Source: an uncultured Gemmatimonadales bacterium (GTDB taxonomy: Bacteria; Gemmatimonadota; Gemmatimonadetes; Longimicrobiales; RSA9). From it: a stretch of 64,000 nt of DNA. A model generated the notes under the pieces. The model made no database searches, was not told the DNA's origin, and saw only the letters and a program-made list of their open reading frames with translations. A program made the position numbers and the translations under genes. The stretch lies in contig OY970192.1 in the NCBI GenBank assembly GCA_963708135.1, positions 800,001-864,000 of the forward strand, given 5' to 3'. The stretch's first letter is position 1. Every line of letters begins with the position of its first letter. Positions 15,012-33,806 of this stretch are shown in pieces.

Positions 15012-15162
15012 CCGCCCGGATTCCGTCACCACTCCGGCGGTGATACGCTTCCGGGTTCGGGCTCAAACCCGGCAGGCGCCGCTCACAACGCCATTCAGCC
15101 CGATTCCGCCATCGGTGCGGCCCACGGTACCGCTCTGGTCCACTTCAACCAGGAGCGAGACC

Positions 15163-16398
15163 ATGAGCCGTTTCGAGAAGCGCCGCCGGGCCCAGCGCGC
15201 CGCCGCCGTCGCCGGAGTGGACGCGGGCAAGAGGAAGCACGCGATCGCCGTCCGGCCGCGCGGCGGCGAGGACAGCACGCCGCTCGAGTTCCAGACGACG
15301 CGGGAGGGCTTCGAGATCGCCGTCCACGCGATCCTCGACAACGCGCCCGACGCGCGGCCGGAGGACGTGCTGGTCGGCATCGAGTTCGCCGGCAACTACG
15401 GCTTCACCTTCGCGCACTTCCTGCGCGACCGCGGCTTCCAGGTCGTGAACGTGCTCGGCGCGCACAGCAAGCGCTGGAAGGAGGTCGTCCACAACCAGGG
15501 GCTGAAGAGCGACGCGAAGGACGCGCTCACGATCACCGACATGGTGGCGCAGGGCGCCTTCGTCGGCTTCCCGTTCCTCGAGCAGGTCTACGCCGACCTG
15601 CGCTACCTGGTCAGCATGCGCGAGCGCCTGACGAAGCTCCGGAGCGCGACGATCGCGCGGCTGAAGGACGTGCTCCAGGTCGTCTGGCCGGAGTTCGAGC
15701 GGCGCTTCAGCAACTTTAGCAAGAAGACGCCGATCGCGATCCTGGAGGCGTTCCCCGGGCCGGATGCGTTCCTGCGCGCACCGAAGCGGCGCGTGCTGAA
15801 GGTGATCCGGGAGGCGAGCCGGGGTCATCTGGGCGCGGCCGCCTACGAGCACCTGCGGTGCGCGGCCGAGGACACCGTGGCGCTCCCCGGCGCGCAGGGC
15901 GTGCTTGCGCAGGAGGTCGGCCTCCAGCTCGATCTCTTGGCCTCCTACGAGCGCCAGATCGCCGAGGTCGACCGCCTCATGGCCGAGCGGCTCGTGGACG
16001 CGCCCGAGGCCGAGGCGCTCCTGTCCGTCCCGAAGCTCGGCGCCGTCACGGCCGCCGTGTTCCTGGGCTCGATCGGCGACCCGCGGGCCTACGACTCCAG
16101 CCGGCAGGCGCTCAAGGTCGGCGGCCTCGGGCTCGTCGTGAGCGAGAGCGGCGCCCAGCGCGGCCGGCCGCGGCTCCCCAAGCGCGGCCGGCCCGAGCTC
16201 CGGCGCCAGATGTACATGTTCGCGGTGCGGAGCGTGAGCCGGGGCGGCCTGTTCCGGGCGGAATACGAGCGGGCGCTCGAGCGCAATCCGAACACGCCGA
16301 AGAAGAAGGTGCTGGTCGCGCTCGCGCGGAAGGCGACGCGGCTCATGTTCGCGCTCGCGAAGGAGCGGCGGCTGTACACGATGGAACCGCCGCGGTAG
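15163..16398 (+). CDS. IS110-family recombinase (unit 2)
   Basis: GVDAGK, GIEFAGNY, KSDAKDA, SESG; PKRG instead of SKRG. Confidence 0.95.
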   Translation: MSRFEKRRRAQRAAAVAGVDAGKRKHAIAVRPRGGEDSTPLEFQTTREGFEIAVHAILDNAPDARPEDVLVGIEFAGNYGFTFAHFLRDRGFQVVNVLGAHSKRWKEVVHNQGLKSDAKDALTITDMVAQGAFVGFPFLEQVYADLRYLVSMRERLTKLRSATIARLKDVLQVVWPEFERRFSNFSKKTPIAILEAFPGPDAFLRAPKRRVLKVIREASRGHLGAAAYEHLRCAAEDTVALPGAQGVLAQEVGLQLDLLASYERQIAEVDRLMAERLVDAPEAEALLSVPKLGAVTAAVFLGSIGDPRAYDSSRQALKVGGLGLVVSESGAQRGRPRLPKRGRPELRRQMYMFAVRSVSRGGLFRAEYERALERNPNTPKKKVLVALARKATRLMFALAKERRLYTMEPPR

Positions 16399-17045
16399 GT
16401 TGGGGGAATCAACACCATGGGAGGGCCGGCTGGCGCGGTGCGCGCCGGCCCTCCTACAGTGCACCAGACGCAGGCCGGGGGATGGAGCAGAAGAATCCAT
16501 CGAAGGGGCCGTCTCGCACGAACGTGAGGCCTGCTTCCCAAGGTCGGACCCGCTCCCCCTGACCCAGAGTTCGCCACAGTCTCCGAGGAAGGCGTGTCGA
16601 GGGCCACGCGCGGCAGACGCCGCCACGGTGCCTCCGAGGACTTGAGGGTATCGAGCTACGCGATCTCGAGTGGTCTGGGTGCGATTTGACAACTCAGCGC
16701 TTGCCTTCGCCGTCGCGGCGTCGAGCCGGCCGCGACGGAACGGGTGGCGTGTGCCCGGCGCGGATCCGACATCCAGCCTGAGGCGGCCCAGCCGGCCTCC
16801 CATGATGGACCTGATCGCGTCGGGCACCGTCCTCCTCATGGGCATCGGCCCGGCATGGACCCGATAATCCGGATGAAGGGCGCTCTGCGGCCTCCCATGT
16901 GGGACTCGGTCGTGCCGGGCCCCGCCTCCCCGCCGGGCTGGCCGACGGGGAGGTGAGCCGAACCGGGGCCTGTGTGGATCGGGGGATCCGACAGAGGCGC
17001 GAACATCGCGGCCTCGGAAAGTGACACTTGATCGCATCGGCCTCT
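16399..17045 (+). ncRNA. Putative multi-loop bridge RNA region, unit 2 (5 loops)
   Basis: Two-loop core closed by GCACCAGAC/GTCTGGGTGC stem plus three stand-alone hairpins. Confidence 0.75.
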
Positions 17046-17055
17046 TCGCTGGTCG

Positions 17056-17457
17056 TCATCGGTACTCCTCCTCCAAGCGTTGCAGTAGGGCAGTAAACTC
17101 AGCTACAGCCTCCGGAATCCCCTCGCCCAAGTCCTCGTGGAAGTAGTCGCGGAAGAGTAGATCTGGCCAGATCCGCGTCTGCCCAGGCGCGGTGGTGTCG
17201 ACGCGCCAATATCGGGAAGCCCGGCCATCTACTATCTCGAACAGTGAGATCGGTGCCCAGGAGAGCTTCCCATGCTCATTGACGAGGTGCAGCCATGTCC
17301 CGGTGCCCAAGACGTTGGAGTCAACCGAGAATTGGACTCCAACTACCATGTAGGTCTTCCCCAATTCCAATGCGAACTCATGGGCATCAGCAGCTACTCG
17401 GCCCATCCGCATCCGCTGCTCGGCGGTCGGCGAAATGGAGACACACTTGGCTCGCAT
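17056..17457 (-). CDS. Putative immunity protein (unit 2 cargo)
   Basis: Start overlaps CT stop (TAATG); low GC. Confidence 0.75.
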   Translation of the reverse strand: MRAKCVSISPTAEQRMRMGRVAADAHEFALELGKTYMVVGVQFSVDSNVLGTGTWLHLVNEHGKLSWAPISLFEIVDGRASRYWRVDTTAPGQTRIWPDLLFRDYFHEDLGEGIPEAVAEFTALLQRLEEEYR

Positions 17458-18011
17458 TATCTGAATACCGTTTTGAATTCCACCCGCACACCGGTTACGA
17501 GGTTTTCGACCCAGTGTGTCTCGAACCGGACTCCGTCGTCTGCCCTAAATATGCTACTACTCTTCTTGACCCAGTCTCCTGCCTCGCCTCCGTACTGCTC
17601 AGCTATCCTGCCAGCATCCCGAAACACGGTTCCGGATCGACCACCGGCAAAGATGGTCCCTCGCTCCGCCATCTGCGCTTTGCTGGCGATCTGTTTCGCC
17701 AGGTTGAGGGCTTCGCCACTTCTGCCGACGCCGCCGATGAAGGCCCCGGGCGAGCCGCACAAAACACCTTCACCACAACCGCCCCCCATAAGGTCGTTGA
17801 AGGTCTGTTCTCCGGCTTCAAGAGCTGCGCCCACGTTCAGCGCCCAAGAACGGCCGGTTCGAGACCCCCAGTTGGCCAGTAATTGGTAACAGGATTCATC
17901 GGAACCGGTGAAGGGACACAGCCCGAACGGATCGGTATAGGAGGCCGGATTATCCCCGTTGTAGCTGTAGAGGTTGAGCCCGCCCGCAAGTCCAATGGGG
18001 TCTTCCTGCGT
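17457..18011 (-). pseudogene. Orphan Rhs CT with retained core tail TQEDPIGLAGGLNLYSYNGDNPASYTDPFG
   Basis: Translation; C-terminal RDAGRIAEQYGG..DWVKKSS..ETHWVEN..G..VEFK (predicted nuclease-like, unassigned). Confidence 0.85.
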
Positions 18012-18139
18012 TAATATCCGCTCAGACGCCTCCGGCCGACTCCCGAGCCGCTATCCCTCTGTCGTTTCTTTCTTTAGCCGCTTCCTTCCCGCCTTCTTCG
18101 TCGTAGTTTTCCGCTTCAGACCTGGATGCGTGTTTTCCC

Positions 18140-18361
18140 CTACGCAAAGAGGAGGCGTCCCTTCGGCGGTGGTACCTCACGACCGATGTCGCGCGCCGTC
18201 TCGATCCACTCCTCGATCACCGTCTGCACGTTGCCCAGCGCCTCGCGATACGTGGCACCGTCGGCGGCACAGCCCGGCAGCTCGGGCACCTCGGCGATGT
18301 AGGCATCGTCCTCCTCGCTCCAGTAGAGGATGATCTCGTAGCGTGGGTCAGTCTTCGCCAT
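18140..18361 (-). CDS. hicB: HicB-family antitoxin
   Basis: YEIILYWSEED.AYIAEVPELPGC.ADG.T..EAL..PPPKG. Confidence 0.9.
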   Translation of the reverse strand: MAKTDPRYEIILYWSEEDDAYIAEVPELPGCAADGATYREALGNVQTVIEEWIETARDIGREVPPPKGRLLFA

Positions 18362-18614
18362 CGGCCGTGCCTCCAAGCTTGTACGTCACGATTACACGCC
18401 GGACCTGCTTCACCTGATACGGCTTCGCCAGCTTGCCCCTGGGCTGCAGGTTCAGGATCTCCGCGATGCCATCACGCAAGTAAATGTGATGGCTGCCGCG
18501 GATCCGCTCCTCGAAGCCGAGCGCATGGAGCAGACGCCGCAGATCCTGGAAATCGATGGCGCTGTCGGAGGTTCCCCGCAGCAGCCGCGCCAGGATCTTG
18601 TCGATCTGCGTCAT
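18348..18614 (-). CDS. hicA: HicA-family toxin
   Basis: LGFEERIRGSHHIY..ILNLQP..AKPYQVKQVR. Confidence 0.9.
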   Translation of the reverse strand: MTQIDKILARLLRGTSDSAIDFQDLRRLLHALGFEERIRGSHHIYLRDGIAEILNLQPRGKLAKPYQVKQVRRVIVTYKLGGTADGED

Positions 18615-18668
18615 GCCGAAAGATAGCGTGCCGGCTCCTCGCGCGGGACCACCAAGGTGCGGGGCAGG

Positions 18669-18756
18669 TTTACGTAACCCGGTTACGTAAAGGGCCAGAG
18701 GCCCCCAGCGCAGGCGCGGCGAGGCCGAGTGCGCATAATCCCGGGATTATGCGCAC
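18669..18756. promoter_or_regulatory. Two palindromes, probable recombinase-binding or hairpin sites
   Basis: TTTACGTAACCCGGTTACGTAAA (18669-18691); perfect GTGCGCATAATCCCGGGATTATGCGCAC (18729-18756). Confidence 0.6.
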
Positions 18757-18884
18757 CGAGCGAAAGCGAGGGGACCCGGCCGGTCCCGAGCGAGAGCGAG
18801 GGCGGCGCGCCGGAGCGCAGCCTGCGCCGCACGCGCCACGCTGCCGGCCCTGCCACCACCACCCTAAATAGACAAGCAAAGCAG

Positions 18885-19847
18885 CTAAAGAGAGGAGGGG
18901 TGGGTGGGCCGTGTGAGATGGGCCGGGTGAGTGCGGGCGTGCACCTGCTTGAGGCGGGCGATGGAGACGCGGGTGTAGAGCTGGGTGGTGGAGAGCTGGG
19001 CATGACCGAGCATCTCCTGGATGTCGCGGATGTCGGCGCCGCCCTCGAGCATGAGGGTGGCCATGGTGTGGCGAAAGAGGTGGCAGGAGCCGCTCTTGCC
19101 GAGGTCAGCCGCGGCCACGTAGCGGCGCACCAGCTCAGAGAGACGATTGGCCCGGAGCCGCCGTCCGCGGCGGGAGAGAAAGAGGAGTCCGTGATCGGGC
19201 GGCACGAGCAGGTGCGGCCGCACATCCGAGAGGTAGCGCTGGGCCCAGGCGAGCGCCCGCTCCCCGACGGGCACCAGCCGGTCGCGTCGTCCCTTGCCCT
19301 CGCGCACGAAGAGACTGCCGCGGGCAGGATCAATGTCCACCAGGCGGAGCCGGATGAGTTCGGTGCGACGGATCCCGGTCGAGTAGAGCACCTCGAGGAG
19401 CGTGCGGTCCCGCACCCCGAGCAGGGTGAACAGATCCGGCTGCGCAAGCACCCGCTCCGCTTCGTCGCTGGTGAGCACGGCGCCGGGCAGGTGATGGGCT
19501 CGCCTGGGCAGCTCGAGGTCGGCCGCGGGGTTGTAGGGCAGGCGGTGGGTCCGCACGAGCCACTTCAACAGGCCCTTGATGGCGATGAGCTTCTGCGCCT
19601 GTGCGCCCCAGCCCAGCGGCTGTCCGTTCTTCTGCCGCTGCTGGAAGAGCGCCGTGCGATAGCGCTCGAGGAGCGGCAGCGAGAGATCCTGCACGGTCTC
19701 GACGCCGCGCTCCTCGCACCAGGTGCGGAAGTGGTTCAGGTAGCTTTTGCGGCTGCGCACCGTGTGCGGCGAGTAGGCCGCGGCCGCAAGCGCGGCCAGG
19801 TGCAGCGCGATGAGCGTGGCGAGTTCGCTCTCCGCGGCCGCACTCAT
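18885..19847 (-). CDS. XerC/D-like tyrosine recombinase
   Basis: TGIRRTE, GKG, HLFRH, LGH, TQLYT catalytic set. Confidence 0.95.
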   Translation of the reverse strand: MSAAAESELATLIALHLAALAAAAYSPHTVRSRKSYLNHFRTWCEERGVETVQDLSLPLLERYRTALFQQRQKNGQPLGWGAQAQKLIAIKGLLKWLVRTHRLPYNPAADLELPRRAHHLPGAVLTSDEAERVLAQPDLFTLLGVRDRTLLEVLYSTGIRRTELIRLRLVDIDPARGSLFVREGKGRRDRLVPVGERALAWAQRYLSDVRPHLLVPPDHGLLFLSRRGRRLRANRLSELVRRYVAAADLGKSGSCHLFRHTMATLMLEGGADIRDIQEMLGHAQLSTTQLYTRVSIARLKQVHARTHPAHLTRPTHPSSL

Positions 19848-22800
19848 GCGTCCGCCGGGCCGTGATGGCCATTGCCCGAGGGAGCGGTTGCGACTACGTA
19901 CGATTCCAGCCGCTCGTCGCCCTGAGATGGCTTTTCCAGTCTTTCTTTAGCAGCTAAAGAAGGGATCCGACTGACAGGAGCGGAGTTAGTACCGCTCGAA
20001 GCACCCCGGCCCCGGCCCGACCTCCCGCCGGCCGGGGGCCGACCGGACCCCGACCGCTCCACTCGGAGCCCCGACCGCTTCGCGTCATAGCCACCCTCGT
20101 GCAACGCCTCCACCTCGATCAGCCCCGGCAGAAACGCCTCACCTCCCATCCCCTGGCCCCGGTAGAGCAGCTCATAGGTGTAGCGCGGCCCCACCCGGTG
20201 CATGAGCACGTACTCGAGATCCACCAGTCGGCCCAGATGGATCTTTGTCTGCGTCGCACCCGTCGCGAGCGCCTCGCGCACCGACCGGGCTGTGAAGCGG
20301 AAGGTCTCCGGCTCGACCGTCTCACGACTGCACTCCTCGATGGCCCACTCGTTGAGCGCCTCCAGGAAACGGCGCGTCTGCGGCGGCAGCTCATCCAGCG
20401 ATCTCCCCAGCACCGCGGCCGCCAGCCGGTTCGCGACCTCGATATCCTCTCGAGTGACTTCGATGTAGTCGATCCGCTCACCACCCCGCTCCGCCTGCTT
20501 CACCTCGCGCTGGTACTGGTGCAGCAACGCGATCGCATCCATCAGCGTCAGGTACTTCTCGTGATCGCGCCGCGTGCGGGTGCACGTGTCCAGAAACGTG
20601 AGCTGCGGCGCGTACGGGTTCACCACCGCCAGCGGTCGGAGCAGTCGCTGCGCGTTCTGATGCAGTCGCACCAGGGCATTCCCCTCCCGCCGTGCCAGCA
20701 GGCCCTCCAGTGTGCGCCGCGCCCGTTGCCGCTCGTGCACGCGCCGCGTCTGCGCGCGCGCCTCATCCACACTCAGCACCAGCGCCCGATTGAGCAGTTC
20801 CTCGTCCAGGTCCGTGGCCGTCGTGGTCAGCATGATCGCCACCGGCCCCTCCACCCGGTACTCCTCCGTCACCAGCCGGCCCGTGTGCGGATCCTTGCCC
20901 GTACTCGCGATGCTCAGCGTCCCCTCGCTCTGCAGCAGCTTGAGCGCGTAGCTCGCCCGCTCCGCACCTTCTTCTTCCACCACCGCCAGCACCTTGTGGC
21001 GCAGGTCCCGCCCGCCCATGTAGAAGAGGCTCTGCCCCGTCATGGCGGAGTACTCAATGCGCTCCTCTTCAGGCACGAAGCCCAGCACCGCATCGAGCAG
21101 GCTCGTCTTGCCCGCCGCACTGCTGCTCTGCACGATCACCGCGAGCGGCCGCTCCAGCTTCCGGCTCACGCTCGCCAGATAGCCCACCAGCTTGTTCGTC
21201 TCCTCGCCTACCACCCCCACCGCCTCGAAAGCACCGAGTACCTGCTCCAGCAGGTCGGGGGCGCGCAGCAGATCGAGCGCCGCGGCCTCCTCCCCCTCCG
21301 AGAGCTCGGGCGGCTTCTGTTCCCGGGGCGTGAGCGCATCGCGGAGTCGCTCCTCCTGCAGCGTCTCCAGCGCCAGCAGCACCTGGCCCAGCTCCGTCTT
21401 GAGCGCCGGCTCCGGGGCGCCGAGCTCGCTGGCGGCTTGCTTGAGGTAGGCCGTGCGCTGCTTGGCCGCGTACAGGTCCAGCGTGTCCACGTGCAGCGCC
21501 GCGCCCTGACGTACCAGCAGGTTGATCCGCAGCGCGTCCGCACTCGTGTTCTTCTCCAGCCCCCGCACCCGGTAACTCCGCTCGCCCGCGCGCAGCACGA
21601 CCTCATGCTCACCCACCTCCACCGGCAGCGGCGGGGTGGGCGCGGCGGGAAGCGGAGAGGCAGACGGCACAGAGGGAGAGGAGGCGGCTAAAGGAGAGGA
21701 GGTCGAGGCCTTCGCAGTGGAGTGCGACGTGCCGGACACCCCCACTGATAGCTCATCCGCACCTGGCTCGTCCGGAGGACGTGCGGACTTCGCCGCGGGC
21801 GTTGCACGGCCACCGCCCAACCACACCGCGTGCCGGATCCGCTCCCCCAGGCTCTCCGCTGCCGGTGTCGAGGCCAGGGCATAGGCGTTGGCGTCCATCC
21901 CCTGCGGAAACTGGATGCGATAACACCCGATTCCGTCCGCCGCGAGTTGCTCGGCCAGTGCGGCCGCCGCGCTCTCGCCCGCCGCGTCCCGGTCGTAGGC
22001 GATCAGCACGCGCTCGGTGCCGTATCTGCGAAACGCCTCGTGATGCGCCGCCGTGAAGCCGCTCACCCCGTAGCTCGCCGTCACGTTCCGGTAGCCCGCG
22101 CACCAGAAGCTCAGCGCATCGAGCAGCGCCTCGCACAGGATGACCTCCTTCGACTCCGCCAGCGCCGCTTCGTTCCACACCCCCGCGTGCGCCCCCGGCA
22201 GGTAGAGGTGCAGCGGCGTGCCTGCCCGCAGTCCCTCCGTGATCTTGCGACCGTACATCTCCCGCACCGCTTCATCGGCATCGATCACCGGCACCACCAG
22301 CGAGCCGGTGAAATGCTCGTGTCCGCTCGGTCGCAGGATCCCCAGCCGCTGCAGCCGACTCCGGATCTCCGCTCCCGCCTTGAGCGCCTTCTTCGGCAGG
22401 TGGTAGCCCAGCGTCCGGTTGGCGAAGCCCAGTTGGAAGCGGTCAATATCCGCCACCTGGGCGAGGCCCCGCTTCTCCAGGTAGGCGATGGCTTCCGGAC
22501 TCTCCTTCAGCGTCTCGTGGTAGTAGCCCACCACCTGCTGCAGCAGCGCCTGGTCATCGACGTCCGGCTCCAGCAGCGGCGGCAGTGCTCTGGCCTTTGC
22601 ACTCGCGGCGGGCGCACCCCGCAGGATCTCCACCGCGTGCCGGAAGCTCACCCCCTCGCGCCGCATCACCCAGTCGATCACGCTCCCGCCCGCCTGGCAC
22701 GCGCCCAGGCAGTGCCACAGCCCTTTCGCCGGGCTCACCACCAGACTCGGCTCGTGGTCCTCGTGGAACGGACACAGCCCCAGCAGGTCCGCGCCGTGCC

Positions 22801-22891
22801 GCCGCAGCTTCACTCCGCTCCCCTCCACCAGCCCCACCAGGTCCGCCTCGCGCTTGAGCCGCTCCAACTCCTCCCTCTGGATCCGGGCCAT
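19844..22891 (-). CDS. CHC2 zinc-finger/TOPRIM primase fused to P-loop ATPase
   Basis: CPFH..WHCLGAC; CEALLD..YDRD; SSAAGKT Walker A. Confidence 0.9.
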   Translation of the reverse strand: MARIQREELERLKREADLVGLVEGSGVKLRRHGADLLGLCPFHEDHEPSLVVSPAKGLWHCLGACQAGGSVIDWVMRREGVSFRHAVEILRGAPAASAKARALPPLLEPDVDDQALLQQVVGYYHETLKESPEAIAYLEKRGLAQVADIDRFQLGFANRTLGYHLPKKALKAGAEIRSRLQRLGILRPSGHEHFTGSLVVPVIDADEAVREMYGRKITEGLRAGTPLHLYLPGAHAGVWNEAALAESKEVILCEALLDALSFWCAGYRNVTASYGVSGFTAAHHEAFRRYGTERVLIAYDRDAAGESAAAALAEQLAADGIGCYRIQFPQGMDANAYALASTPAAESLGERIRHAVWLGGGRATPAAKSARPPDEPGADELSVGVSGTSHSTAKASTSSPLAASSPSVPSASPLPAAPTPPLPVEVGEHEVVLRAGERSYRVRGLEKNTSADALRINLLVRQGAALHVDTLDLYAAKQRTAYLKQAASELGAPEPALKTELGQVLLALETLQEERLRDALTPREQKPPELSEGEEAAALDLLRAPDLLEQVLGAFEAVGVVGEETNKLVGYLASVSRKLERPLAVIVQSSSAAGKTSLLDAVLGFVPEEERIEYSAMTGQSLFYMGGRDLRHKVLAVVEEEGAERASYALKLLQSEGTLSIASTGKDPHTGRLVTEEYRVEGPVAIMLTTTATDLDEELLNRALVLSVDEARAQTRRVHERQRARRTLEGLLARREGNALVRLHQNAQRLLRPLAVVNPYAPQLTFLDTCTRTRRDHEKYLTLMDAIALLHQYQREVKQAERGGERIDYIEVTREDIEVANRLAAAVLGRSLDELPPQTRRFLEALNEWAIEECSRETVEPETFRFTARSVREALATGATQTKIHLGRLVDLEYVLMHRVGPRYTYELLYRGQGMGGEAFLPGLIEVEALHEGGYDAKRSGLRVERSGSGRPPAGGRSGRGRGASSGTNSAPVSRIPSLAAKERLEKPSQGDERLESYVVATAPSGNGHHGPADA

Positions 22892-22994
22892 GGCTCCTGC
22901 CTCCTCCGGAAATCCCGTCAATGGACCCTTGCGTCTCTTGTGGTATGGACTAATATGTCATCATCGCACCGGACGCAAGAGAGGAGGCCTTATC

Positions 22995-23381
22995 ATGATC
23001 GACCACGTGAAGCTCTATCCCGAGGTCGATATGGAGCAGTTCCCGGAGACCCTCAAGCTGCTGAGGGAAAGCAGGGGTCTGACGCAGGCCCGGCTTGCCG
23101 AGTTGATCGAGGCCAGTCCGCGCGTCTACAATCGGTGGGAAACGGGCGCGGCGGCCCCGCGGCTAGACACTCTCGTGAAGATCGCTGACATCCTCAACGT
23201 CAGCCTGGACGAGCTCGTCGGGCGCACCGAGCCCAGTTCCGAGGTCGAGATCCAGAATCCCAGGCTCCACGCCCTCTACCGCCACATCGATCGGCTCTCC
23301 GACGAGGACCAGCAGGCCGTCATCATCCTTCTCGACTCTCTCGTCAAGCGGTCCCAGATGGACCAGATCCTCGCTTCCTGA
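22995..23381 (+). CDS. XRE-family HTH regulator, divergent from primase
   Basis: LKLLRESRGLTQARLAELI..YNRWETG..P..L.KIADIL.VSLDELVG. Confidence 0.9.
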   Translation: MIDHVKLYPEVDMEQFPETLKLLRESRGLTQARLAELIEASPRVYNRWETGAAAPRLDTLVKIADILNVSLDELVGRTEPSSEVEIQNPRLHALYRHIDRLSDEDQQAVIILLDSLVKRSQMDQILAS

Positions 23382-23624
23382 CCAGCCACCGCCGCCCACG
23401 GGAACGAGCAGCTAAAGGAAGAAGCCCGGCCATCGCTGGTCGGGCTCTCCGGCTTCATGCCTGTGTCTCGGCACCGTTGCGGGCTCCGCTCCGGCGTGCC
23501 GGCCTCGCATTATGCGCCCTCGCCCTCGGCGCGCCTCCGCTCCGGGCGCTTCGCGCCTCTACATAACCGGGTTATGCAAACCCGCTGCGGCAGATCTCGT
23601 TGACAAAACGCCATATTCATTTGC

Positions 23625-24074
23625 TCATTCAGAGTTCAGCGGAGACTGACTGGCAACTTGCGTCGATTCCGAGAATTCCCATGCCTTAAAAGTAATCTCG
23701 ATCCACGAGTAGCCCTCGCGGCGAAATGACGCTTTGTAGCTGGGCCCGGTCAGCCGTGAACGAACCAAGGCTCCAGCATCTTCGACTCGAAGGCAAGCGA
23801 TTTCGCCGAAGCCCCAACCAAGTGATGCCTCCTTCTGCATCACTGAGTCAGAGAGTTCGTTGATAACGTGCAGTTCACTCACGCCGCAGAAGCGGATTGA
23901 CACAATACGCCGGTCAGCGTATTGGGTCCGAATCGTTCCATCCTCCTGCCACACGAAGTCAATGTCGATGCTGAGGGACGCGCCCCAGTTCAGCCACTGG
24001 ACGCCGACAACAACACACTCCTCGAAATCGCGGTACGCGTGAAGCTCTGCTCTCAATACAGGCAATCCGCTCAT
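23625..24074 (-). CDS. Putative immunity protein (integrative-element cargo)
   Basis: Overlaps CT stop (ATGA); low GC. Confidence 0.75.
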   Translation of the reverse strand: MSGLPVLRAELHAYRDFEECVVVGVQWLNWGASLSIDIDFVWQEDGTIRTQYADRRIVSIRFCGVSELHVINELSDSVMQKEASLGWGFGEIACLRVEDAGALVRSRLTGPSYKASFRREGYSWIEITFKAWEFSESTQVASQSPLNSE

Positions 24075-27044
24075 CGATTCCAGATGTTAAGATGCGTGGT
24101 CGCGTTGGGACCAGGGTTACCCAGCGCGTCGAGATAGTTGCGAGCTGCATTCATGATGCGCAGTTGCCAACCATTTTCCCGCCGCATTAAGCGAACTTCT
24201 TCGCCCGTTCCATTCGTGAAAAGGTAGCCACTCTTATTCTCCGTCAGTCCCATCACAAACCCGTTCTCTTTCAGAATTGCGCGAATTCCAATGATCGACT
24301 CATCCGCAAGTCCGCCTCCCTCCGAGAACAGCGCGCGTAGCCCGGCGCTCGCTCCCCGTAGCCCCCGCCCGACGGCACCACCACCCACCGTGAATGCCGC
24401 CATTGCGAAGCCGCGTCCGGCGTGACCACTCCCGATATCGAAGCCAGCATCAAACGCTGCGGTGATCGGATTGACATCGTTGATCGCATTCAACCCAGCT
24501 GCGGCATTGAGCACCACGCCGCCCAGGCCACCGCCACGCTGCGCTCCCCAATTTGCCGCTTTCTGCAAGCAATCTTCAATCGGCGGGCACAATCCGAACG
24601 GGTCGGTATAAGACGCGGGGTTGTTGCCCGCATACGCATAGAGGTTAAGCCCGCCGGCAAATCCGATGGGGTCTTCCTGCGTGAACCTCCCCAATCTGGC
24701 GTCGTAGTAGCGGTTGCGGAAGAAGGCTCCGGTCTCCTGGTTCGAGTCGCCGTTGCGGGCGGGGGCGAAGCTGTAGCTTTCGCGGATGGCACCCGACTGC
24801 GAGCCCCAGGTACTCCACGCCGGGAGCTCGTTTCCGTTCGTGTCCGTGATGCAGTTCTCGCCCTGCGGGCCCTGGAAGCTGAACAGTCGTTCGCGATGCG
24901 TGATGAAATATGCGCGCTTGTCGTTCAGGCTGCCGAGGGGACACGCAGCGTTGCCGTACATCATCAGCGGGTCGTCGAGCCCCGGCCCGTCCACGAACTC
25001 GACCGTCGAGTGCTCGATCACGTTCTGACCATCGTAGAAGGTCTCCGCGCCGGAGTGGGCATAAGCGCCGCGGATCCGCCGGCCCAGGCCGTCGTAGCGG
25101 AAGAAGGCGGTATCGGGGTGAGTGCCGGAGAGCTGGCCGGCGGCGCTGTAGTAGCGGTGCCAGGTGTAGGCGGTCCCGGCGTAGGTGCCCTGCTCGAGCG
25201 TCTCGTTGCCGTTCGCGTCGTAGCTGAAGTCGACGCTCTCCGGACCGGAGACGCCGCTGTAGTAGCGGGTCCGGCGGGTCACCTCGTTCGAGAGGCCGTC
25301 GAGCTGGAAGAGCACGCTGTCGGCGCACAGGCTGCCGCGCACGCACAGGTACTCCTTCACGCGGTTGCCGGCCGCGTCGTGGACCAGGCTGTCCATGGAG
25401 GCGTAGGTGCCGTTCTTCATCTGGTCCGTGTAGCGGATCTTCCCCCGGTGGTCGTAGGCCCAGTGGCTGACCCACGTCCCTCCGTTCGTCTCCCGGCCCC
25501 GGTTCACGACCGAGTCCGGCCGGCCCGCGGCGTCGTAGGCGAAGGTAAGGTCCACGGGCGTGTAGCCCGTCGTCGCATTGACCGAGACGACGCGCGCGAG
25601 CTGCCCGTCCTTCGTGTAGCCGTAGCTCGTCTTCGTGCCGTTGGGCAGCGAGACCGTGTCGCGCCGGCCGAGCGCGTCGTAATGGAAGGAGATCACCTCG
25701 CCCGCCGGCGTCTGGATCTGGCTGACGAGCCCGCCCGGGCCGAAGGTCGAGGTGTAGGTGCCCTTCGGCGTGGTCCGCGTGTGCCGGCCCGCCCACTGGT
25801 AGGCCGACGTGTACGTCCGCGTCGTTCCCGACCACTTGTGGAGCTGGACGCTCGAGGCGAGGGTGCCCTCGCGGTTGAAGGTGCGCGTGACCTTCGAGCT
25901 GTCCTCGTCGAGCACGGTCGGGTTGCCGGCGGCGTCGTACTGGAGGTCGATCGTGGTGCCGCGCACGCCGAGGACACCGCCCTGGTAGGTGCTCGAGAGA
26001 ATCCGCTGCTTCGGGCGGTCGTCGCCGTCGTAGTGGATCGTGACGGTGCTGCCGTCGCGGTTCGTGCCCAGGGTGAGGTTCCCGGCGAGGTCGTAGGCGT
26101 CGAGCTGGGTGGCCCCCTTGGCGTCGACCATTGCCGTGTCCTCGCCCAGGGCGTTGTACTGCCAGATGCGGGCGAGCAGGCGGGGGTCTGACGCGCCAAT
26201 GCGGTTACCATCCGCATCGAACGTGAAGCGGCTGGGGCGTATGAGGCCGTGGTCGTACTGGTCGACCTCGGTCCGGTTGCCGAGAAGGTCGTGCACGAAG
26301 GTCGTGCTGTCACCGGCGGGGTCGCTCACGCGGCGCAACAGCCCGTAGGCGTCGTAGCCGTAGCTGGTGGTGTCGCCGCCGGGCGTGGTGCTCGAGAGCA
26401 GGTTGCCGGTGCCGGAATCGTCGTTGCCGAGCATCGTGGTGAGATCCTGCACGCCGGCGCCGTAGACCGGCACGGAGTGCTCGGTCGCGCTCGCCACCTG
26501 GCCGCGGCTGTTGTACGTGAAGCTGGTCTCGTGCCCGCGCGGGTCCACGACGTTGTCCAGCGTGCCGTCCGTGGCGTTGTAGGTGAAGGTGGTGGTGTCC
26601 CGGTGCGTCCCGTCGCGCGGCTCGATCAGCTTCCACGGCTTGTCAGGCGCCGCCGTCGAATACCGATAGGTCACCGAATCCGCGCCGGCGCTCGACGTGA
26701 GGTCCGCGGCGTAGGCGACCCGGCCGGAGCCGTCGTAGGCGGTCGTGGTGGTGCGGCCGTTCGGCCAGTCGACCTCCTTCGTGAGCAGGGGGAAGCTGGC
26801 GTCGTGCTTCAGGACGGTTGTATTGCCCACGGCGTCGACAACCGTGTCCGGCGCGCCGAAGCGGTCCAGGTAGAACTTCGTGATCTGCAGGGTGTCCGTG
26901 CGCGGCCCGTGCACCTCGAAGTCGGCGCTCGCGGCCGCGTAGCTGGCGTTGAGGCCGGTGGCGGCGGTGGCAAGGCCGCGGCTCGCGAGAGGAGTAAACG
27001 TCGTGACCGGCGTTCCGGCCGTGACCTGCGGCAGGGTGTCGGCC
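24071..27044 (-). pseudogene. 5'-truncated Rhs paralog fused in frame to the integrative-element CT
   Basis: YD repeats, RYYD..GRFTQEDPIG..NNPASYTDPFG, CT ending YLDALGNPGPNATTHLNIWNR; Rhs homology stops at 27044. Confidence 0.9.
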
Positions 27045-27293
27045 TCCCACGATGGACCTGATCGCGTCGGGCACGCCCCTCCTTCGCACTCATGGCCATC
27101 GACCCGGCATGGACCCGATAATCCGGGCGAGGCGCGCTCTGCGGCCTCCCATGTGGGACTCGGTCGTGCCGGGGCCCCACCTCCCCGCCGGGATGACCGA
27201 CGGGGAGGTGAGCGGAACGGGGCCGGTGTGGATCCGATAATCCGGTCGAGGGGTCTATGACCGCCTCCAATCTCGGACTCGATCGCACCGGCT
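27040..27293 (+). ncRNA. Remnant bridge-RNA-like region (2.5 loops) of a unit whose recombinase was deleted
   Basis: Homologous to 16793-17045 and 40047-40292. Confidence 0.75.
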
Positions 27294-27596
27294 CTACTCG
27301 CTTGGTTGGTTCCGCAGCAAGTCCCAGAGGCGTTCGCGAAGATGATCGAGGGTGGCATTCGCAACCGCTTCATCATCAACTGAATGGCCGTTTGCGCGGC
27401 TAATCCAAAGATCGGTGAAGCTGCCCATGCCTCCGAACAGTGCGCGGGCGTCATCGCAAATGTCCGGGCAATTTAGTTTTGATCTATGCTGGTTCAATAT
27501 TGAATCAACCATCGAAGCCCACCCGGTTTCGTTGTGTCTACGTAAAAACTGCTCAATATCCTTGAGCACAGCTTCAACGTCCGCGTGTGCCGCCAT
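27294..27596 (-). CDS. Putative immunity protein (GGMGSF.D motif)
   Basis: GGAGG RBS; directly downstream of CT. Confidence 0.75.
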   Translation of the reverse strand: MAAHADVEAVLKDIEQFLRRHNETGWASMVDSILNQHRSKLNCPDICDDARALFGGMGSFTDLWISRANGHSVDDEAVANATLDHLRERLWDLLRNQPSE

Positions 27597-27605
27597 CGGT
27601 CCTCC

Positions 27606-28193
27606 TCACGGGTGCGGGATCAGTACGCTTGGATCCCGAAGCCAGATCTGCGTCGCCCACGGAGCACCGCCAGCAACGCGACCAGTAAAGATTTCCGTTC
27701 CTTTCGGAATCACAAAACTGTTAAGTGTTTCAGCCGTTGCGCTTTCGGGCAAGTTCAGCGCGGCTCGCGCGATTTCGCCCGAAGCGATTCGGGAAACCGT
27801 TTGACGCGTGGTCAGGAAACGGCCGATCGGTCGGGAAACACCGCCGGAATATCGGTAACCGCTGACGTCACTTTGGAGAACTCTACTGCGTACGGTTCCG
27901 GCGAACGATTCAGCTACATCAGAAGCGAGGTCGCTCTTCGCAGCAGAAGCCGCGACCCGCCCGACCAACGCCTCCACCCCATGGCTCAGGAGTCCAGAAA
28001 TTCCTCCCGCGAGCAGCGCCACCGGATCGAGAAGGCCCCCGCTCTTTAGCCCTGGCTCACCACCGGGGCACCCCGCGTGCCATTCGGTTTCCGGCGGGCA
28101 CAGACCAAAGGGGTCCGTATAGGAGGCCGGATTATTCCCCGCATACGCATAGAGGTTGAGCCCGCCCGCAAGTCCGATGGGGTCTTCCTGCGT
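27606..28193 (-). pseudogene. Orphan Rhs CT with retained core tail; possible ART/TNT-like NAD-using toxin
   Basis: TQEDPIGL..NNPASYTDPFGLCPPETEWH..; YR..G..GRFLT..LNLP..IPKGT..G.VAGG...QI; fold call tentative. Confidence 0.75.
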
Positions 28194-28321
28194 TAATATC
28201 CGCTCAGACGCCTCCGGCCGACTCCCGAGCCGCTATCCCTCTGTCGTTTCTTTCTTTAGCCGCTTCCTTCCCGCCTTCTTCGTCGTAGTTTTCCGCTTCA
28301 GACCTGGATGCGTGTTTTCCC

Positions 28322-28543
28322 CTACGCAAAGAGGAGGCGTCCCTTCGGCGGTGGTACCTCACGACCGATGTCGCGCGCCGTCTCGATCCACTCCTCGATC
28401 ACCGTCTGCACGTTGCCCAGCGCCTCGCGATACGTGGCACCGTCGGCGGCACAGCCCGGCAGCTCGGGCACCTCGGCGATGTAGGCATCGTCCTCCTCGC
28501 TCCAGTAGAGGATGATCTCGTAGCGTGGGTCAGTCTTCGCCAT
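28322..28543 (-). CDS. hicB: HicB-family antitoxin (copy 2)
   Basis: Identical protein to copy 1. Confidence 0.9.
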   Translation of the reverse strand: MAKTDPRYEIILYWSEEDDAYIAEVPELPGCAADGATYREALGNVQTVIEEWIETARDIGREVPPPKGRLLFA

Positions 28544-28796
28544 CGGCCGTGCCTCCAAGCTTGTACGTCACGATTACACGCCGGACCTGCTTCACCTGAT
28601 ACGGCTTCGCCAGCTTGCCCCTGGGCTGCAGGTTCAGGATCTCCGCGATGCCATCACGCAAGTAGATGTGATGGCTGCCGCGGATCCGCTCCTCGAAGCC
28701 GAGCGCATGGAGCAGACGCCGCAGATCCTGGAAATCGATGGCGCTGTCGGAGGTTCCCCGCAGCAGCCGCGCCAGGATCTTGTCGATCTGCGTCAT
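28530..28796 (-). CDS. hicA: HicA-family toxin (copy 2)
   Basis: Identical protein to copy 1. Confidence 0.9.
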   Translation of the reverse strand: MTQIDKILARLLRGTSDSAIDFQDLRRLLHALGFEERIRGSHHIYLRDGIAEILNLQPRGKLAKPYQVKQVRRVIVTYKLGGTADGED

Positions 28797-29066
28797 GCCG
28801 AAAGATAGCGTGCCGGCTCCTCGCGCGGGACCACCAAGGTGCGGGGCAGGTTTACGTAACCCGGTTACGTAAAGGGCCAGAGGCCCCCAGCGCAGGCGCG
28901 GCGAGGCCGAGTGCGCATAATCCCGGGATTATGCGCACCGAGCGAAAGCGAGGGGACCCGGCCGGTCCCGAGCGAGAGCGAGGGCGGCGCGCCGGAGCGC
29001 AGCCTGCGCCGCACGCGCCACGCTGCCGGCCCTGCCACCACCACCCTAAATAGACAAGCAAAGCAG

Positions 29067-30029
29067 CTAAAGAGAGGAGGGGTGGGTGGGCCGTGTGAGA
29101 TGGGCCGGGTGAGTGCGGGCGTGCACCTGCTTGAGGCGGGCGATGGAGACGCGGGTGTAGAGCTGGGTGGTGGAGAGCTGGGCATGACCGAGCATCTCCT
29201 GGATGTCGCGGATGTCGGCGCCGCCCTCGAGCATGAGGGTGGCCATGGTGTGGCGAAAGAGGTGGCAGGAGCCGCTCTTGCCGAGGTCAGCCGCGGCCAC
29301 GTAGCGGCGCACCAGCTCAGAGAGACGATTGGCCCGGAGCCGCCGTCCGCGGCGGGAGAGAAAGAGGAGTCCGTGATCGGGCGGCACGAGCAGGTGCGGC
29401 CGCACATCCGAGAGGTAGCGCTGGGCCCAGGCGAGCGCCCGCTCCCCGACGGGCACCAGCCGGTCGCGTCGTCCCTTGCCCTCGCGCACGAAGAGACTGC
29501 CGCGGGCAGGATCGATGTCCACCAGGCGGAGCCGGATGAGTTCGGTGCGACGGATCCCGGTCGAGTAGAGCACCTCGAGGAGCGTGCGGTCCCGCACCCC
29601 GAGCAGGGTTGACAGATCCGGCTGCGCAAGCACCCGCTCCGCTTCGTCGCTGGTGAGCACGGCGCCGGGCAGGTGATGGGCTCGCCTGGGCAGCTCGAGG
29701 TCGGCCGCGGGGTTGTAGGGCAGGCGGTGGGTCCGCACGAGCCACTTCAACAGGCCCTTGATGGCGATGAGCTTCTGCGCCTGTGCGCCCCAGCCCAGCG
29801 GCTGTCCGTTCTTCTGCCGCTGCTGGAAGAGCGCCGTGCGATAGCGCTCGAGGAGCGGCAGCGAGAGATCCTGCACGGTCTCGACGCCGCGCTCCTCGCA
29901 CCAGGTGCGGAAGTGGTTCAGGTAGCTTTTGCGGCTGCGCACCGTGTGCGGCGAGTAGGCCGCGGCCGCAAGCGCGGCCAGGTGCAGCGCGATGAGCGTG
30001 GCGAGTTCGCTCTCCGCGGCCGCACTCAT
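29067..30029 (-). CDS. XerC/D-like tyrosine recombinase (copy 2)
   Basis: One substitution vs copy 1 (DLF to DLS). Confidence 0.95.
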   Translation of the reverse strand: MSAAAESELATLIALHLAALAAAAYSPHTVRSRKSYLNHFRTWCEERGVETVQDLSLPLLERYRTALFQQRQKNGQPLGWGAQAQKLIAIKGLLKWLVRTHRLPYNPAADLELPRRAHHLPGAVLTSDEAERVLAQPDLSTLLGVRDRTLLEVLYSTGIRRTELIRLRLVDIDPARGSLFVREGKGRRDRLVPVGERALAWAQRYLSDVRPHLLVPPDHGLLFLSRRGRRLRANRLSELVRRYVAAADLGKSGSCHLFRHTMATLMLEGGADIRDIQEMLGHAQLSTTQLYTRVSIARLKQVHARTHPAHLTRPTHPSSL

Positions 30030-33000
30030 GCGTCCGCCGGGCCGTGATGGCCATTGCCCGAGGGAGCGGTTGCGACTACGTACGATTCCAGCCGCTCGTC
30101 GCCCTGAGATGGCTTTTCCAGTCTTTCTTTAGCAGCTAAAGAAGGGATCCGACTGACAGGAGCGGAGTTAGTACCGCTCGAAGCACCCCGGCCCCGGCCC
30201 GACCTCCCGCCGGCCGGGGGCCGACCGGACCCCGACCGCTCCACTCGGAGCCCCGACCGCTTCGCGTCATAGCCACCCTCGTGCAACGCCTCCACCTCGA
30301 TCAGCCCCGGCAGAAACGCCTCACCTCCCATCCCCTGGCCCCGGTAGAGCAGCTCATAGGTGTAGCGCGGCCCCACCCGGTGCATGAGCACGTACTCGAG
30401 ATCCACCAGTCGGCCCAGATGGATCTTTGTCTGCGTCGCACCCGTCGCGAGCGCCTCGCGCACCGACCGGGCTGTGAAGCGGAAGGTCTCCGGCTCGACC
30501 GTCTCACGACTGCACTCCTCGATGGCCCACTCGTTGAGCGCCTCCAGGAAACGGCGCGTCTGCGGCGGCAGCTCATCCAGCGATCTCCCCAGCACCGCGG
30601 CCGCCAGCCGGTTCGCGACCTCGATATCCTCTCGAGTGACTTCGATGTAGTCGATCCGCTCACCACCCCGCTCCGCCTGCTTCACCTCGCGCTGGTACTG
30701 GTGCAGCAACGCGATCGCATCCATCAGCGTCAGGTACTTCTCGTGATCGCGCCGCGTGCGGGTGCACGTGTCCAGAAACGTGAGCTGCGGCGCGTACGGG
30801 TTCACCACCGCCAGCGGTCGGAGCAGTCGCTGCGCGTTCTGATGCAGTCGCACCAGGGCATTCCCCTCCCGCCGTGCCAGCAGGCCCTCCAGTGTGCGCC
30901 GCGCCCGTTGCCGCTCGTGCACGCGCCGCGTCTGCGCGCGCGCCTCATCCACACTCAGCACCAGCGCCCGATTGAGCAGTTCCTCGTCCAGGTCCGTGGC
31001 CGTCGTGGTCAGCATGATCGCCACCGGCCCCTCCACCCGGTACTCCTCCGTCACCAGCCGGCCCGTGTGCGGATCCTTGCCCGTACTCGCGATGCTCAGC
31101 GTCCCCTCGCTCTGCAGCAGCTTGAGCGCGTAGCTCGCCCGCTCCGCACCTTCTTCTTCCACCACCGCCAGCACCTTGTGGCGCAGGTCCCGCCCGCCCA
31201 TGTAGAAGAGGCTCTGCCCCGTCATGGCGGAGTACTCGATGCGCTCCTCTTCAGGCACGAAGCCCAGCACCGCATCGAGCAGGCTCGTCTTGCCCGCCGC
31301 ACTGCTGCTCTGCACGATCACCGCGAGCGGCCGCTCCAGCTTCCGGCTCACGCTCGCCAGATAGCCCACCAGCTTGTTCGTCTCCTCGCCTACCACCCCC
31401 ACCGCCTCGAAAGCACCGAGTACCTGCTCCAGCAGGTCGGGGGCGCGCAGCAGATCGAGCGCCGCGGCCTCCTCCCCCTCCGAGAGCTCGGGCGGCTTCT
31501 GTTCCCGGGGCGTGAGCGCATCGCGGAGTCGCTCCTCCTGCAGCGTCTCCAGCGCCAGCAGCACCTGGCCCAGCTCCGTCTTGAGCGCCGGCTCCGGGGC
31601 GCCGAGCTCGCTGGCGGCTTGCTTGAGGTAGGCCGTGCGCTGCTTGGCCGCGTACAGGTCCAGCGTGTCCACGTGCAGCGCCGCGCCCTGACGTACCAGC
31701 AGGTTGATCCGCAGCGCGTCCGCACTCGTGTTCTTCTCCAGCCCCCGCACCCGGTAACTCCGCTCGCCCGCGCGCAGCACGACCTCATGCTCACCCACCT
31801 CCACCGGCAGCGGCGGGGTGGGCGCGGCGGGAAGCGGAGAGGCAGACGGCACAGAGGGAGAGGAGGCGGCTAAAGGAGAGGAGGTCGAGGCCTTCGCAGT
31901 GGAGTGCGACGTGCCGGACACCCCCACTGATAGCTCATCCGCACCTGGCTCGTCCGGAGGACGTGCGGACTTCGCCGCGGGCGTTGCACGGCCACCGCCC
32001 AACCACACCGCGTGCCGGATCCGCTCCCCCAGGCTCTCCGCTGCCGGTGTCGAGGCCAGGGCATAGGCGTTGGCGTCCATCCCCTGCGGAAACTGGATGC
32101 GATAACACCCGATTCCGTCCGCCGCGAGTTGCTCGGCCAGTGCGGCCGCCGCGCTCTCGCCCGCCGCGTCCCGGTCGTAGGCGATCAGCACGCGCTCGGT
32201 GCCGTATCTGCGAAACGCCTCGTGATGCGCCGCCGTGAAGCCGCTCACCCCGTAGCTCGCCGTCACGTTCCGGTAGCCCGCGCACCAGAAGCTCAGCGCA
32301 TCGAGCAGCGCCTCGCACAGGATGACCTCCTTCGACTCCGCCAGCGCCGCTTCGTTCCACACCCCCGCGTGCGCCCCCGGCAGGTAGAGGTGCAGCGGCG
32401 TGCCTGCCCGCAGTCCCTCCGTGATCTTGCGACCGTACATCTCCCGCACCGCTTCATCGGCATCGATCACCGGCACCACCAGCGAGCCGGTGAAATGCTC
32501 GTGTCCGCTCGGTCGCAGGATCCCCAGCCGCTGCAGCCGACTCCGGATCTCCGCTCCCGCCTTGAGCGCCTTCTTCGGCAGGTGGTAGCCCAGCGTCCGG
32601 TTGGCGAAGCCCAGTTGGAAGCGGTCAATATCCGCCACCTGGGCGAGGCCCCGCTTCTCCAGGTAGGCGATGGCTTCCGGACTCTCCTTCAGCGTCTCGT
32701 GGTAGTAGCCCACCACCTGCTGCAGCAGCGCCTGGTCATCGACGTCCGGCTCCAGCAGCGGCGGCAGTGCTCTGGCCTTTGCACTCGCGGCGGGCGCACC
32801 CCGCAGGATCTCCACCGCGTGCCGGAAGCTCACCCCCTCGCGCCGCATCACCCAGTCGATCACGCTCCCGCCCGCCTGGCACGCGCCCAGGCAGTGCCAC
32901 AGCCCTTTCGCCGGGCTCACCACCAGACTCGGCTCGTGGTCCTCGTGGAACGGACACAGCCCCAGCAGGTCCGCGCCGTGCCGCCGCAGCTTCACTCCGC

Positions 33001-33073: not shown

Positions 33074-33176
33074 GGCTCCTGCCTCCTCCGGAAATCCCGT
33101 CAATGGACCCTTGCGTCTCTTGTGGTATGGACTAATATGTCATCATCGCACCGGACGCAAGAGAGGAGGCCTTATC

Positions 33177-33563: not shown

Positions 33564-33806
33564 CCAGCCACCGCCGCCCACGGGAACGAGCAGCTAAAGG
33601 AAGAAGCCCGGCCATCGCTGGTCGGGCTCTCCGGCTTCATGCCTGTGTCTCGGCACCGTTGCGGGCTCCGCTCCGGCGTGCCGGCCTCGCATTATGCGCC
33701 CTCGCCCTCGGCGCGCCTCCGCTCCGGGCGCTTCGCGCCTCTACATAACCGGGTTATGCAAACCCGCTGCGGCAGATCTCGTTGACAAAACGCCATATTC
33801 ATTTGC

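Follow-up and report, generated by a model that had tools for sequence, protein, structure and literature searches.

A probable replicative integrative element with its attachment site in the last conserved codons of an Rhs toxin gene

At rhs loci, new toxin tips are described as replacing old ones at the end of the conserved core, a C-terminal displacement seen as a full-length rhs gene followed by orphan tips and immunity genes (Jackson et al., 2009, PMC2935791; Koskiniemi et al., 2014, PMC3967940). A circular intermediate was invoked in the original model, and no integrase was known to go with Rhs (Jackson et al., 2009). The locus described here lies in a 64-kb stretch (the window; G+C of 69.5%) of a single-contig 5.45-Mb Gemmatimonadota genome. 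Positions 18012-24682 of the window are probably the integrated copy of a replicative integrative element, which has its attachment site in the last conserved Rhs codons and replaces the toxin in frame. The locus resembles the displacement model in its succession of a full-length gene, orphan tips and immunity genes, and in the replacement of tips at the core end. It differs in two respects. While no dedicated enzyme takes part in the published model, the tip of the element travels with an integrase, a primase, a repressor and an addiction module. Moreover, the junction of the element falls at one exact nucleotide in each lineage.

Recombinase genes have been found near polymorphic toxins before. 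In the bee-gut bacteria Snodgrassella and Gilliamella, integrase-like genes repeatedly lie beside Rhs genes, and the authors suggested that they help in the capture of toxin sequences but left their role open (Steele et al., 2017, PMC5727410). The study gives no boundaries, target site, partner genes or mechanism of the kind described here. XerC/D genes also occur next to polyimmunity loci (Zhang et al., 2012, PMC3482391). Comparable systems are the recombinase-associated immunity arrays (rAID) of the Bacteroidales (Ross et al., 2019) and the poly-immunity arrays that Xenorhabdus and Photorhabdus carry (Martinkus et al., 2026, Curr Biol 36:176). These systems share with the element the placement of Xer-like tyrosine recombinases beside arrays of toxin-related cassettes. 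In contrast, the arrays consist of immunity genes, and no in-frame toxin replacement by a primase-bearing element is reported. The words integrase, primase, recombinase and XerC are all absent from a 2025 preprint on the Rhs toxins of Ralstonia and other plant pathogens. The literature searches turned up no account of such an element; the work of Martinkus et al. (2026), which concerns 'Xer-dependent recombination systems', may overlap with it.

Three other kinds of site-specific recombination are comparable in part. As in integrons, a Xer-related recombinase would insert promoterless cassettes at a fixed, expressed point and push older ones downstream; unlike in integrons, the recombinase of the element rides on the mobile unit, and the product is a protein fusion instead of a transcriptional one. 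Some genomic islands and satellites insert into the 3′ end of a tRNA or protein gene and bring along a substitute for that end. Here too the attP would copy the 3′ part of the target, the target stays intact and the integrase gene adjoins the attachment site. Whereas these islands restore the same product, the element supplies a different functional end in the form of a new toxin domain. In shufflons and phage tail-fibre invertases, site-specific recombination within a coding sequence swaps C-terminal ends on a constant N-terminal body. There, resident segments are inverted, while here a horizontally mobile circle would be integrated and excised.

The site itself is marked by the 17-mer ATGGGGTCTTCCTGCGT, which occurs five times in the window (at 17995, 24666, 28177, 34848 and 41211), against 0.01 copies expected from shuffled sequence. 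On the minus strand, which carries every gene of the locus except that of the XRE repressor, it encodes TQEDPI and falls at position 46/47 of the 76-position Rhs_assc_core model (TIGR03696). The element is a discrete minus-strand unit of 6671 bp, bounded on both sides by these codons. The left repeat (attL core, 'O'; 24666-24682, minus strand), placed by an alignment of the five sites, links Rhs core fragment B to the tip carried by the element. The right repeat (attR core, 'O'; 17995-18011, minus strand) is an exact 17-mer and forms the head of the displaced orphan tip O1. The exact repeat is 17 nt long for this element and 21 nt for a sister copy; beyond it, the homology extends for about 80 nt more at 79-86% and corresponds to the conserved leader of the tips.

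The arrangement of the genes on both sides is that of an Rhs orphan array, with a full-length rhs gene, two core fragments and two orphan tips, O1 and O2, which share the core end. Along the minus strand, the full-length Rhs gene, its tip, a DUF7674 gene, U1 (621 residues) and several fragments precede core fragment A with the sister element. Next come O2, a DUF6966 gene, fragment B with the element, O1, a presumed immunity gene and a 'U' gene. The full-length gene (40670-45796, minus strand; 1708 residues) is a paralogue of the fragments and carries an unoccupied copy of the site at 41211-41227. Core fragment B (24683-27454, minus strand; RHS_repeat, 2.9e-22) is 78% identical to residues 736-1609 of the full-length protein, and with the element tip it forms a single open reading frame (ORF) of 1127 residues at 24071-27454. 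O1 (17457-18011, minus strand), whose translation has no start codon at its head, and O2 (27606-28193, minus strand), pushed aside by the sister copy, both start exactly at the TQEDPI codons, directly after an identical non-coding element end. An in-frame stop lies 15 codons upstream of the heads of the displaced tips. Both tips align to positions 47-76 of the Rhs_assc_core model, and the leader of O1 is 94% identical to that of the main Rhs gene. The presumed immunity gene of O1 (17056-17457, minus strand) is assigned by the position of its ORF and has no family match. The initial annotation had described a 6671-bp block between TQEDPI repeats, a C-terminal toxin in frame with the upstream core and displaced tips that begin exactly at TQEDPI after the element end, and the repeat counts, translations and alignments agree with it on all three points.

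The element begins, in the direction of transcription, with the Rhs tip (24074-24682, minus strand), which translation shows to be in frame with core fragment B. It consists of a 33-residue conserved leader (TQEDPIGFAGG...DPFGLCP), which matches positions 47-76 of TIGR03696, and a 170-residue toxin domain of no named family. The toxin domain has no match in Pfam and gives a weak lead to MafB-like clusters (0.93, from only 148 shared features). The next gene (23625-24074, minus strand; 149 residues), the start of which overlaps the stop codon of the tip, is by its position the presumed immunity gene; searches of Pfam, NCBIfam and PHROG found no family for it. It is followed by an XRE/Cro-type helix-turn-helix repressor (22995-23381, plus strand; Pfam HTH_3, 1.8e-16), divergent from the primase. 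By analogy, this divergent layout is the usual arrangement of a lysogeny-type switch, and a divergent helix-turn-helix gene is annotated likewise in the Lonsdalea, Pseudomonas, Janthinobacterium and Salmonella relatives. Two minus-strand ORFs (23163-23399 and 23276-23458) were considered as the regulator and rejected as antisense shadows of the plus-strand XRE gene. The gene list of the initial annotation, comprising hicAB, integrase, primase, XRE, immunity and toxin genes, stands with one correction, namely that the XRE gene lies on the plus strand.

The two largest genes of the element encode a primase and a tyrosine recombinase. The primase (19844-22921, minus strand; 1025 residues) contains a CHC2 zinc finger, a DnaG core and a Toprim domain in Pfam and NCBIfam. 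Its C-terminal region of about 590 residues has a P-loop motif, belongs to no named family and found no relative in the PDB or Pfam; calling it a helicase is a guess from the P-loop-like motif. The XerC-like recombinase, or integrase (18885-19847, minus strand), scores 400.7 bits against NF002331 (cutoff 371) and 8.4e-40 against Phage_integrase, and it stays below the cutoffs of the XerC (230.5 bits against 335) and XerD (224.3 against 330) equivalog models. Columns R160/R161, H256, R259, H282 and Y291 are invariant in an alignment of four sequences and, from the motif, are read as the catalytic Arg, His-x-x-Arg, His and Tyr. The integrase lies near one end of the element, 874 bp from the junction, with exact direct repeats of 17-21 nt at both ends. 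The genome holds two identical copies of it and more distant paralogues. A role in chromosomal dimer resolution as XerC/XerD is disfavoured by the context, in which the gene sits inside a duplicated mobile block.

Beyond the integrase lie HicA (18348-18614, minus strand; HicA_toxin, 28.7 bits, cutoff 27) and HicB (18140-18376, minus strand; HicB_lk_antitox, 35.3 bits, cutoff 27; UPF0150, 39.2 bits), in adjacent genes that form an addiction module. Other type II toxin-antitoxin pairs occupy the same position in relatives. The element closes with a non-coding end module 'P' of about 150 nt (18012-18160, minus strand), the presumed attP arm, defined by alignment with the Gemmatimonadota loci L103, G040, L092 and L069. 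It is homologous to the ends of these relatives over about 150 nt, with a 2-nt gap and substitutions at the arm beside the junction.

A clean replicate of the locus comes from a scan of 401 genomes of the phylum. This was a strict first look, so its counts are a floor. Full-length relatives of the primase were found only in G025 and G040, other genomes being matched through DnaG, and the contig of G025 is too short to include a junction. G040 belongs to the same class as the window genome and to another family, and its primase is 57% identical. There, a long Rhs gene is followed by at least 11 orphan tips, interspersed with three primase-integrase blocks and a primase fragment. All tips begin at the same TQEDPI codons, and for 9 of the 12 the sequence directly before these codons is a non-coding end module instead of Rhs core. 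About 165 nt of the module are conserved in eight of these nine cases, only the last 35 nt or so in the ninth, and its final bases mimic the '...GRF' of the Rhs core.

G040 contains two element copies of 6684 bp with 10 differences between them. Their flanks are no more alike than random sequence (25-34% identity), on the left until 4 nt before the site and on the right once 21 nt past the beginning of the right site. On the left, one copy adjoins an Rhs core fragment and the other the end module of another cassette. Such a pair bears the signature of a discrete unit with a single short recombination site; its ends coincide with the site, while conversion tracts would end arbitrarily. The same unit with the same ends between unrelated flanks is found in G040; the window copies differ in their right flanks only.

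The G040 array (L037-L039; G040:C2:1238000-1297999) also includes at least three cassettes of 1.2-1.3 kb, each with a tip and a small gene and without integrase or primase. They begin at TQEDPI behind an end module, either the full 165 nt or so (at 11057 and 27002) or its last 35 nt (at 9833), and a full end module follows each of them. They are candidates for mobilisation in trans. A gammaproteobacterial locus, L054, has a similar cassette array.

The junction nucleotide, F|TQEDP, is identical in five Gemmatimonadota genomes (the window, G040, L103, L092 and L069), the end modules of which have diverged. Together with the G040 copies that end at the site, this shared junction supports the proposal of the initial annotation that an integrating element swaps the toxin. 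In a locus of the Thermoanaerobaculia, the junction is at the equivalent place, with an exact repeat of 21 nt. It lies about 22 codons earlier in the Acidobacteriota (..TG|KERD..), at |YNYFR in a gammaproteobacterial metagenome-assembled genome and further upstream in the 'Multivoradales' and Dyella. As read from these alignments, the predicted junction differs by lineage and always falls within the Rhs core end. In G040, the Acidobacteriota and Lonsdalea, the bases on the element side are an inverted copy of those on the target side, and the 6-bp spacer between them lies across the junction or next to it. In these dyads, 8-9 of 10 arm positions match, and 2-17 of 500 shuffles did as well. A dyad with a 6-bp spacer would be the core-site architecture of a tyrosine recombinase.

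Relatives of the element are found far outside the Gemmatimonadota. A pattern scan of one genome per species recovered at least 576 relatives of the primase, and the best 76 loci were analysed. Among these 76, primase identity is 53-68%, and the hosts include Acidobacteriota, Dormibacteraeota, Gamma-, Beta- and 'Delta'-proteobacteria, Actinomycetota, Nitrospirales, Spirochaetales, Krumholzibacteriia and Gemmatimonadota. Fifty of them contain 60 primase-integrase pairs. In all 60 pairs the integrase is intact and adjacent to the primase, and no other large gene comes between it and the end module. While the helix-turn-helix gene, primase, XerC and toxin-antitoxin core is constant, the toxin-antitoxin family and the toxin vary. 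The family is apparently large, widespread across phyla and undescribed.

The link to Rhs core ends was examined with a motif profile built from the loci themselves. The motif is present in 54 of the 76 loci, and 92 of its 94 matches are on the strand of the primase. Homologous islands with boundaries unrelated to the Rhs motif would have spoken against the initial annotation, and the outcome favours it. Among pairs with enough flanking sequence, 24 of 30 have a same-strand motif no more than 5 kb upstream, and 23 of 31 have one no more than 3.1 kb downstream. A further locus with only a weak motif (L041) is directly behind a 2058-residue RHS-repeat protein. On a megaplasmid of Ralstonia solanacearum, the primase-integrase pair is between Rhs tips. 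On a Janthinobacterium plasmid, it lies behind a large FG-GAP repeat protein and before an array that includes an Imm26 gene. The family also extends to other toxin scaffolds. On the Pseudomonas aeruginosa plasmid pPA1609-475 (L119, 159802-176726), the core lies behind tpsA2, of the CdiA type of two-partner secretion. There, a shared 10-mer that encodes GAK marks the start of the resident tip, of an orphan C39-peptidase tip and of a second element copy, the primase of which is cut by an IS66 element. A copy on a Salmonella plasmid is near a gene of the ShlB/FhaC family.

A relative of the primase occurs in 41 plasmid records. The finished circular plasmid of Lonsdalea populi N-5-1 (NZ_CP072857.1, L118; 11,289 bp) is annotated with an endonuclease toxin, an NTF2-fold immunity protein, a divergent helix-turn-helix gene, SymE, a DNA primase, XerC and DinJ/RelE. 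A second set of toxin, immunity, helix-turn-helix and SymE genes is accompanied by a truncated primase. Both toxins start with a DPIG..DPFGL leader, directly after an end module of about 190 nt, and the whole record contains no Rhs core. By its gene content, the plasmid looks like an excised, free two-cassette circle of the element family. With its shared gene order, it lends weight to the earlier suggestion that the element is self-replicating. Of 43 whole short contigs, two from metagenomes (L042 and L059) overlap exactly at their ends, by 127 and 122 nt, and carry their tips behind an end module. Four element-carrying metagenomic contigs (L042, L059, L075 and L077), 6.2-8.1 kb long, have terminal direct overlaps of 91-127 nt.

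Based on these features, the following cycle may be proposed. In the integrated state, the XRE repressor would silence the divergent primase-integrase operon, and HicAB would penalise loss of the element. Upon induction, the XerC-like integrase would recombine the two repeats of 17-21 nt and free a circle, in which the non-coding end module abuts the element's own tip leader to form attP. The primase/P-loop protein would replicate this circle. In a cell with a matching Rhs gene, the integrase would recombine attP with the TQEDPI codons, which serve as attB. The resident Rhs cage would then be in frame with the incoming tip, the matching immunity gene would be delivered with it, and the old tip and its immunity gene would be shifted downstream as a silent orphan. 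Excision, replication and regulation in this scheme, as well as the present activity of this copy and its route from cell to cell, are inferred from sequence; no transfer genes were seen in the element.

Several observations weigh against integration by such an element, and a number of them favour an alternative based on homologous recombination. In this alternative, the block would be passenger DNA, the decayed form of a plasmid or island, which ended up behind an Rhs tip in the past and has since spread among paralogues and strains by RecA-dependent recombination, through the Rhs core on the left and the tip leader of about 100 bp on the right. This would be classical C-terminal displacement, in which the integrase has no role at the site. 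The sister copy in the window (28194-34864, minus strand), which is fused to core fragment A (34865-36205, minus strand), differs from the element at 5 positions in 6671 bp, and a search of the whole genome found no copy beyond these two. On their right side, identity fades within the tip leader of about 100 nt, and the tips beyond are unrelated. On the left, identity continues for about 600 bp past the repeat into the Rhs core, as would result from a gene-conversion tract, and the same core stretch is 100% identical in the element-free main Rhs gene. Fragment A as a whole is a 100% duplicate of the main gene over 1341 bp and ends abruptly against an unrelated gene fragment. Both copies sit on truncated core fragments, neither in the full-length gene. 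Because of the 600-bp and 1341-bp identities with the main gene, homologous recombination among Rhs core ends is clearly indicated as active at this locus. The two copies probably multiplied recently, and their copying may have occurred through homologous recombination between Rhs paralogues instead of a second integration.

Other loci add to this side of the argument. The copy downstream of the element retains 0.9-2.4 kb of Rhs core in L052, L060, L078, L086, L100 and the Ralstonia locus L117, and such kilobase-long flanking repeats are the pattern that Campbell-type homologous recombination gives. Of the pairs with enough flank, 6 of 30 have no core-end motif upstream (L053, L056, L058, L073, L091 and L113) and 8 of 31 have none downstream (L043, L049, L058, L064, L086, L091, L113 and L114); two of these cases are larger elements with the motif further off. 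The window's own junction has no dyad (6 of 10 positions, equalled by 360 of 500 shuffles), nor do L103, L069 and L092 have a significant one, and the test was also negative for core-type (attB) sites. One possibility is that the window element recombines poorly, another that its integrase recognises the site in a different manner. The terminal overlaps of the metagenomic contigs may reflect either circular molecules or tandem copies. For the window genome, neither a circle junction nor an empty site was found in the only DNA run, which consists of assembled contigs. These contigs break at the repeats (17982-18011 and 24639-24769) and give no evidence either way on excision, and their depths of 11.6 on the element and 7.7 on the flank, being from a contig-only run, are not readable as copy number.

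As a full explanation, recombination between homologous cores nonetheless appears unlikely. One of the two G040 copies has no Rhs core in its left flank, and identity still starts no more than 4 nt from the site. The junction nucleotide has been kept in five genomes despite the divergence of the end modules, and in three lineages the element side of the junction mimics a recombinase arm. The integrase has stayed intact and next to the primase in every pair, and a circular relative exists that lacks the core altogether.

A further alternative is that the integrase belongs to a resident, integron-like shuffler, which excises tip-immunity cassettes and re-inserts them at the Rhs core end to switch the expressed toxin. 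The primase-integrase block would then be the fixed platform of the array and not a traveller. The small G040 cassettes with their end modules and the similar array in L054 would suit such a system, and the integrase is a distant relative of the integron integrases. Its scores of 116.6 bits against TIGR02249 and 78 against NF011946 are, however, far under the cutoffs of 265 and 435. Rather than being fixed beside an attI, the integrase gene is inside a duplicated, site-bounded unit. In addition, genes for replication and addiction form part of the block, one relative exists as a free circle, 53-68% identity over many phyla indicates horizontal travel, and the window has no small cassettes that bear the end module. 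A shuffler of this kind is improbable as an account of the locus. The integrative element, the recombination of homologous cores and the cassette shuffler are not mutually exclusive. A phage or satellite origin (P4-like or PICI-like), the latter raised in the initial annotation, is rejected, as none of 98 phage records covers at least 80% of the primase and their matches are restricted to its DnaG-like third. A PHROG scan of six element proteins, which did not include HicA, HicB or XRE, gave nothing beyond the primase and integrase families save one marginal match of the tip to the tail 'pilot protein for DNA ejection' (E 0.0079).

A more speculative interpretation, which goes beyond the replicative integrative element of the window and is held here as tentative, is that the family forms a very large, cross-phylum class of replicative circles, a 'toxin-domain integron on wheels'. 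In each lineage, the integrase may target a short stretch of a polymorphic toxin gene, in the conserved region ahead of the toxin domain. Such targets are seen in Rhs genes of at least six phyla, in a TpsA/CdiA-type gene on the Pseudomonas plasmid and possibly in another on the Salmonella plasmid. Upon integration, the delivery scaffold already present may be joined in frame to the new toxin, and small tip-immunity cassettes with no more than the module of about 165 nt may be excised and re-inserted in trans by the same integrase. The orphan arrays may then be ordered records of integration and not products of homologous recombination.

The remainder of the window offers some information on the origin of the array. 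The 'U' family consists of proteins of 621-630 residues (10798-12675, 15145-17037 and 38423-40288, minus strand) with no match in Pfam or NCBIfam. They come after three tip-immunity or toxin modules, and their identity is 84% between U1 and U2 and 49-51% with U3. Fragments of this family also occur: one (36206-37048) adjoins core fragment A at the boundary 36206/36207, and another (27040-27296), which resembles 40047-40295, opens fragment B, the first 80 or so codons of which derive from the family. The ancestral locus probably consisted of Rhs-tip-immunity-U units in tandem, since U pieces abut fragment A and begin fragment B. An Ntox10-domain ORF (2.7e-45) and a 160-residue ORF (12889-13380 and 37619-38101, minus strand) have no TQEDPI leader. 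The first 50 or so residues of the latter are 70% identical to the Ntox10-domain ORF, and both seem to be orphan toxin pieces from a different route. Residues 163-249 of the full-length Rhs protein, close to its N-terminus, form a BACON_2-like domain, and an AraC-type helix-turn-helix gene (45865-46905) is directly upstream of its gene. No secretion-system genes, type VI included, were recognised among the neighbours scanned. Elsewhere, a dense short-period repeat (1121-1826; 43 overlapping copies spaced 8-15 nt apart) lies within an ORF at 710-2887, the C-terminal part of which is an alpha/beta hydrolase, and a tandem duplication of about 121 bp, 92% identical, is present at 54299-54541.

Since 2009, when the displacement model appeared, the manner in which polymorphic toxins, Rhs among them, gain new C-terminal toxin domains has stayed an open question. 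The element family would supply the parts that were lacking. Within boundaries set by a site in the Rhs reading frame, it combines integrase and replication protein with a repressor, an addiction module and a toxin tip that comes with its antidote. A direct test of the idea is possible, as harmless bacteria in culture, such as Dyella (D. humi DHG40) and Janthinobacterium (J. lividum HAMBI_1919), carry relatives. If the idea is true, the integrases would form a set of natural recombinases that make in-frame protein fusions. Toxin swapping would be an active, site-specific and horizontally transmissible process, and orphan arrays would record the integration history of a locus. The element would also gain a selfish advantage, because cells that lose it would become sensitive to their kin.

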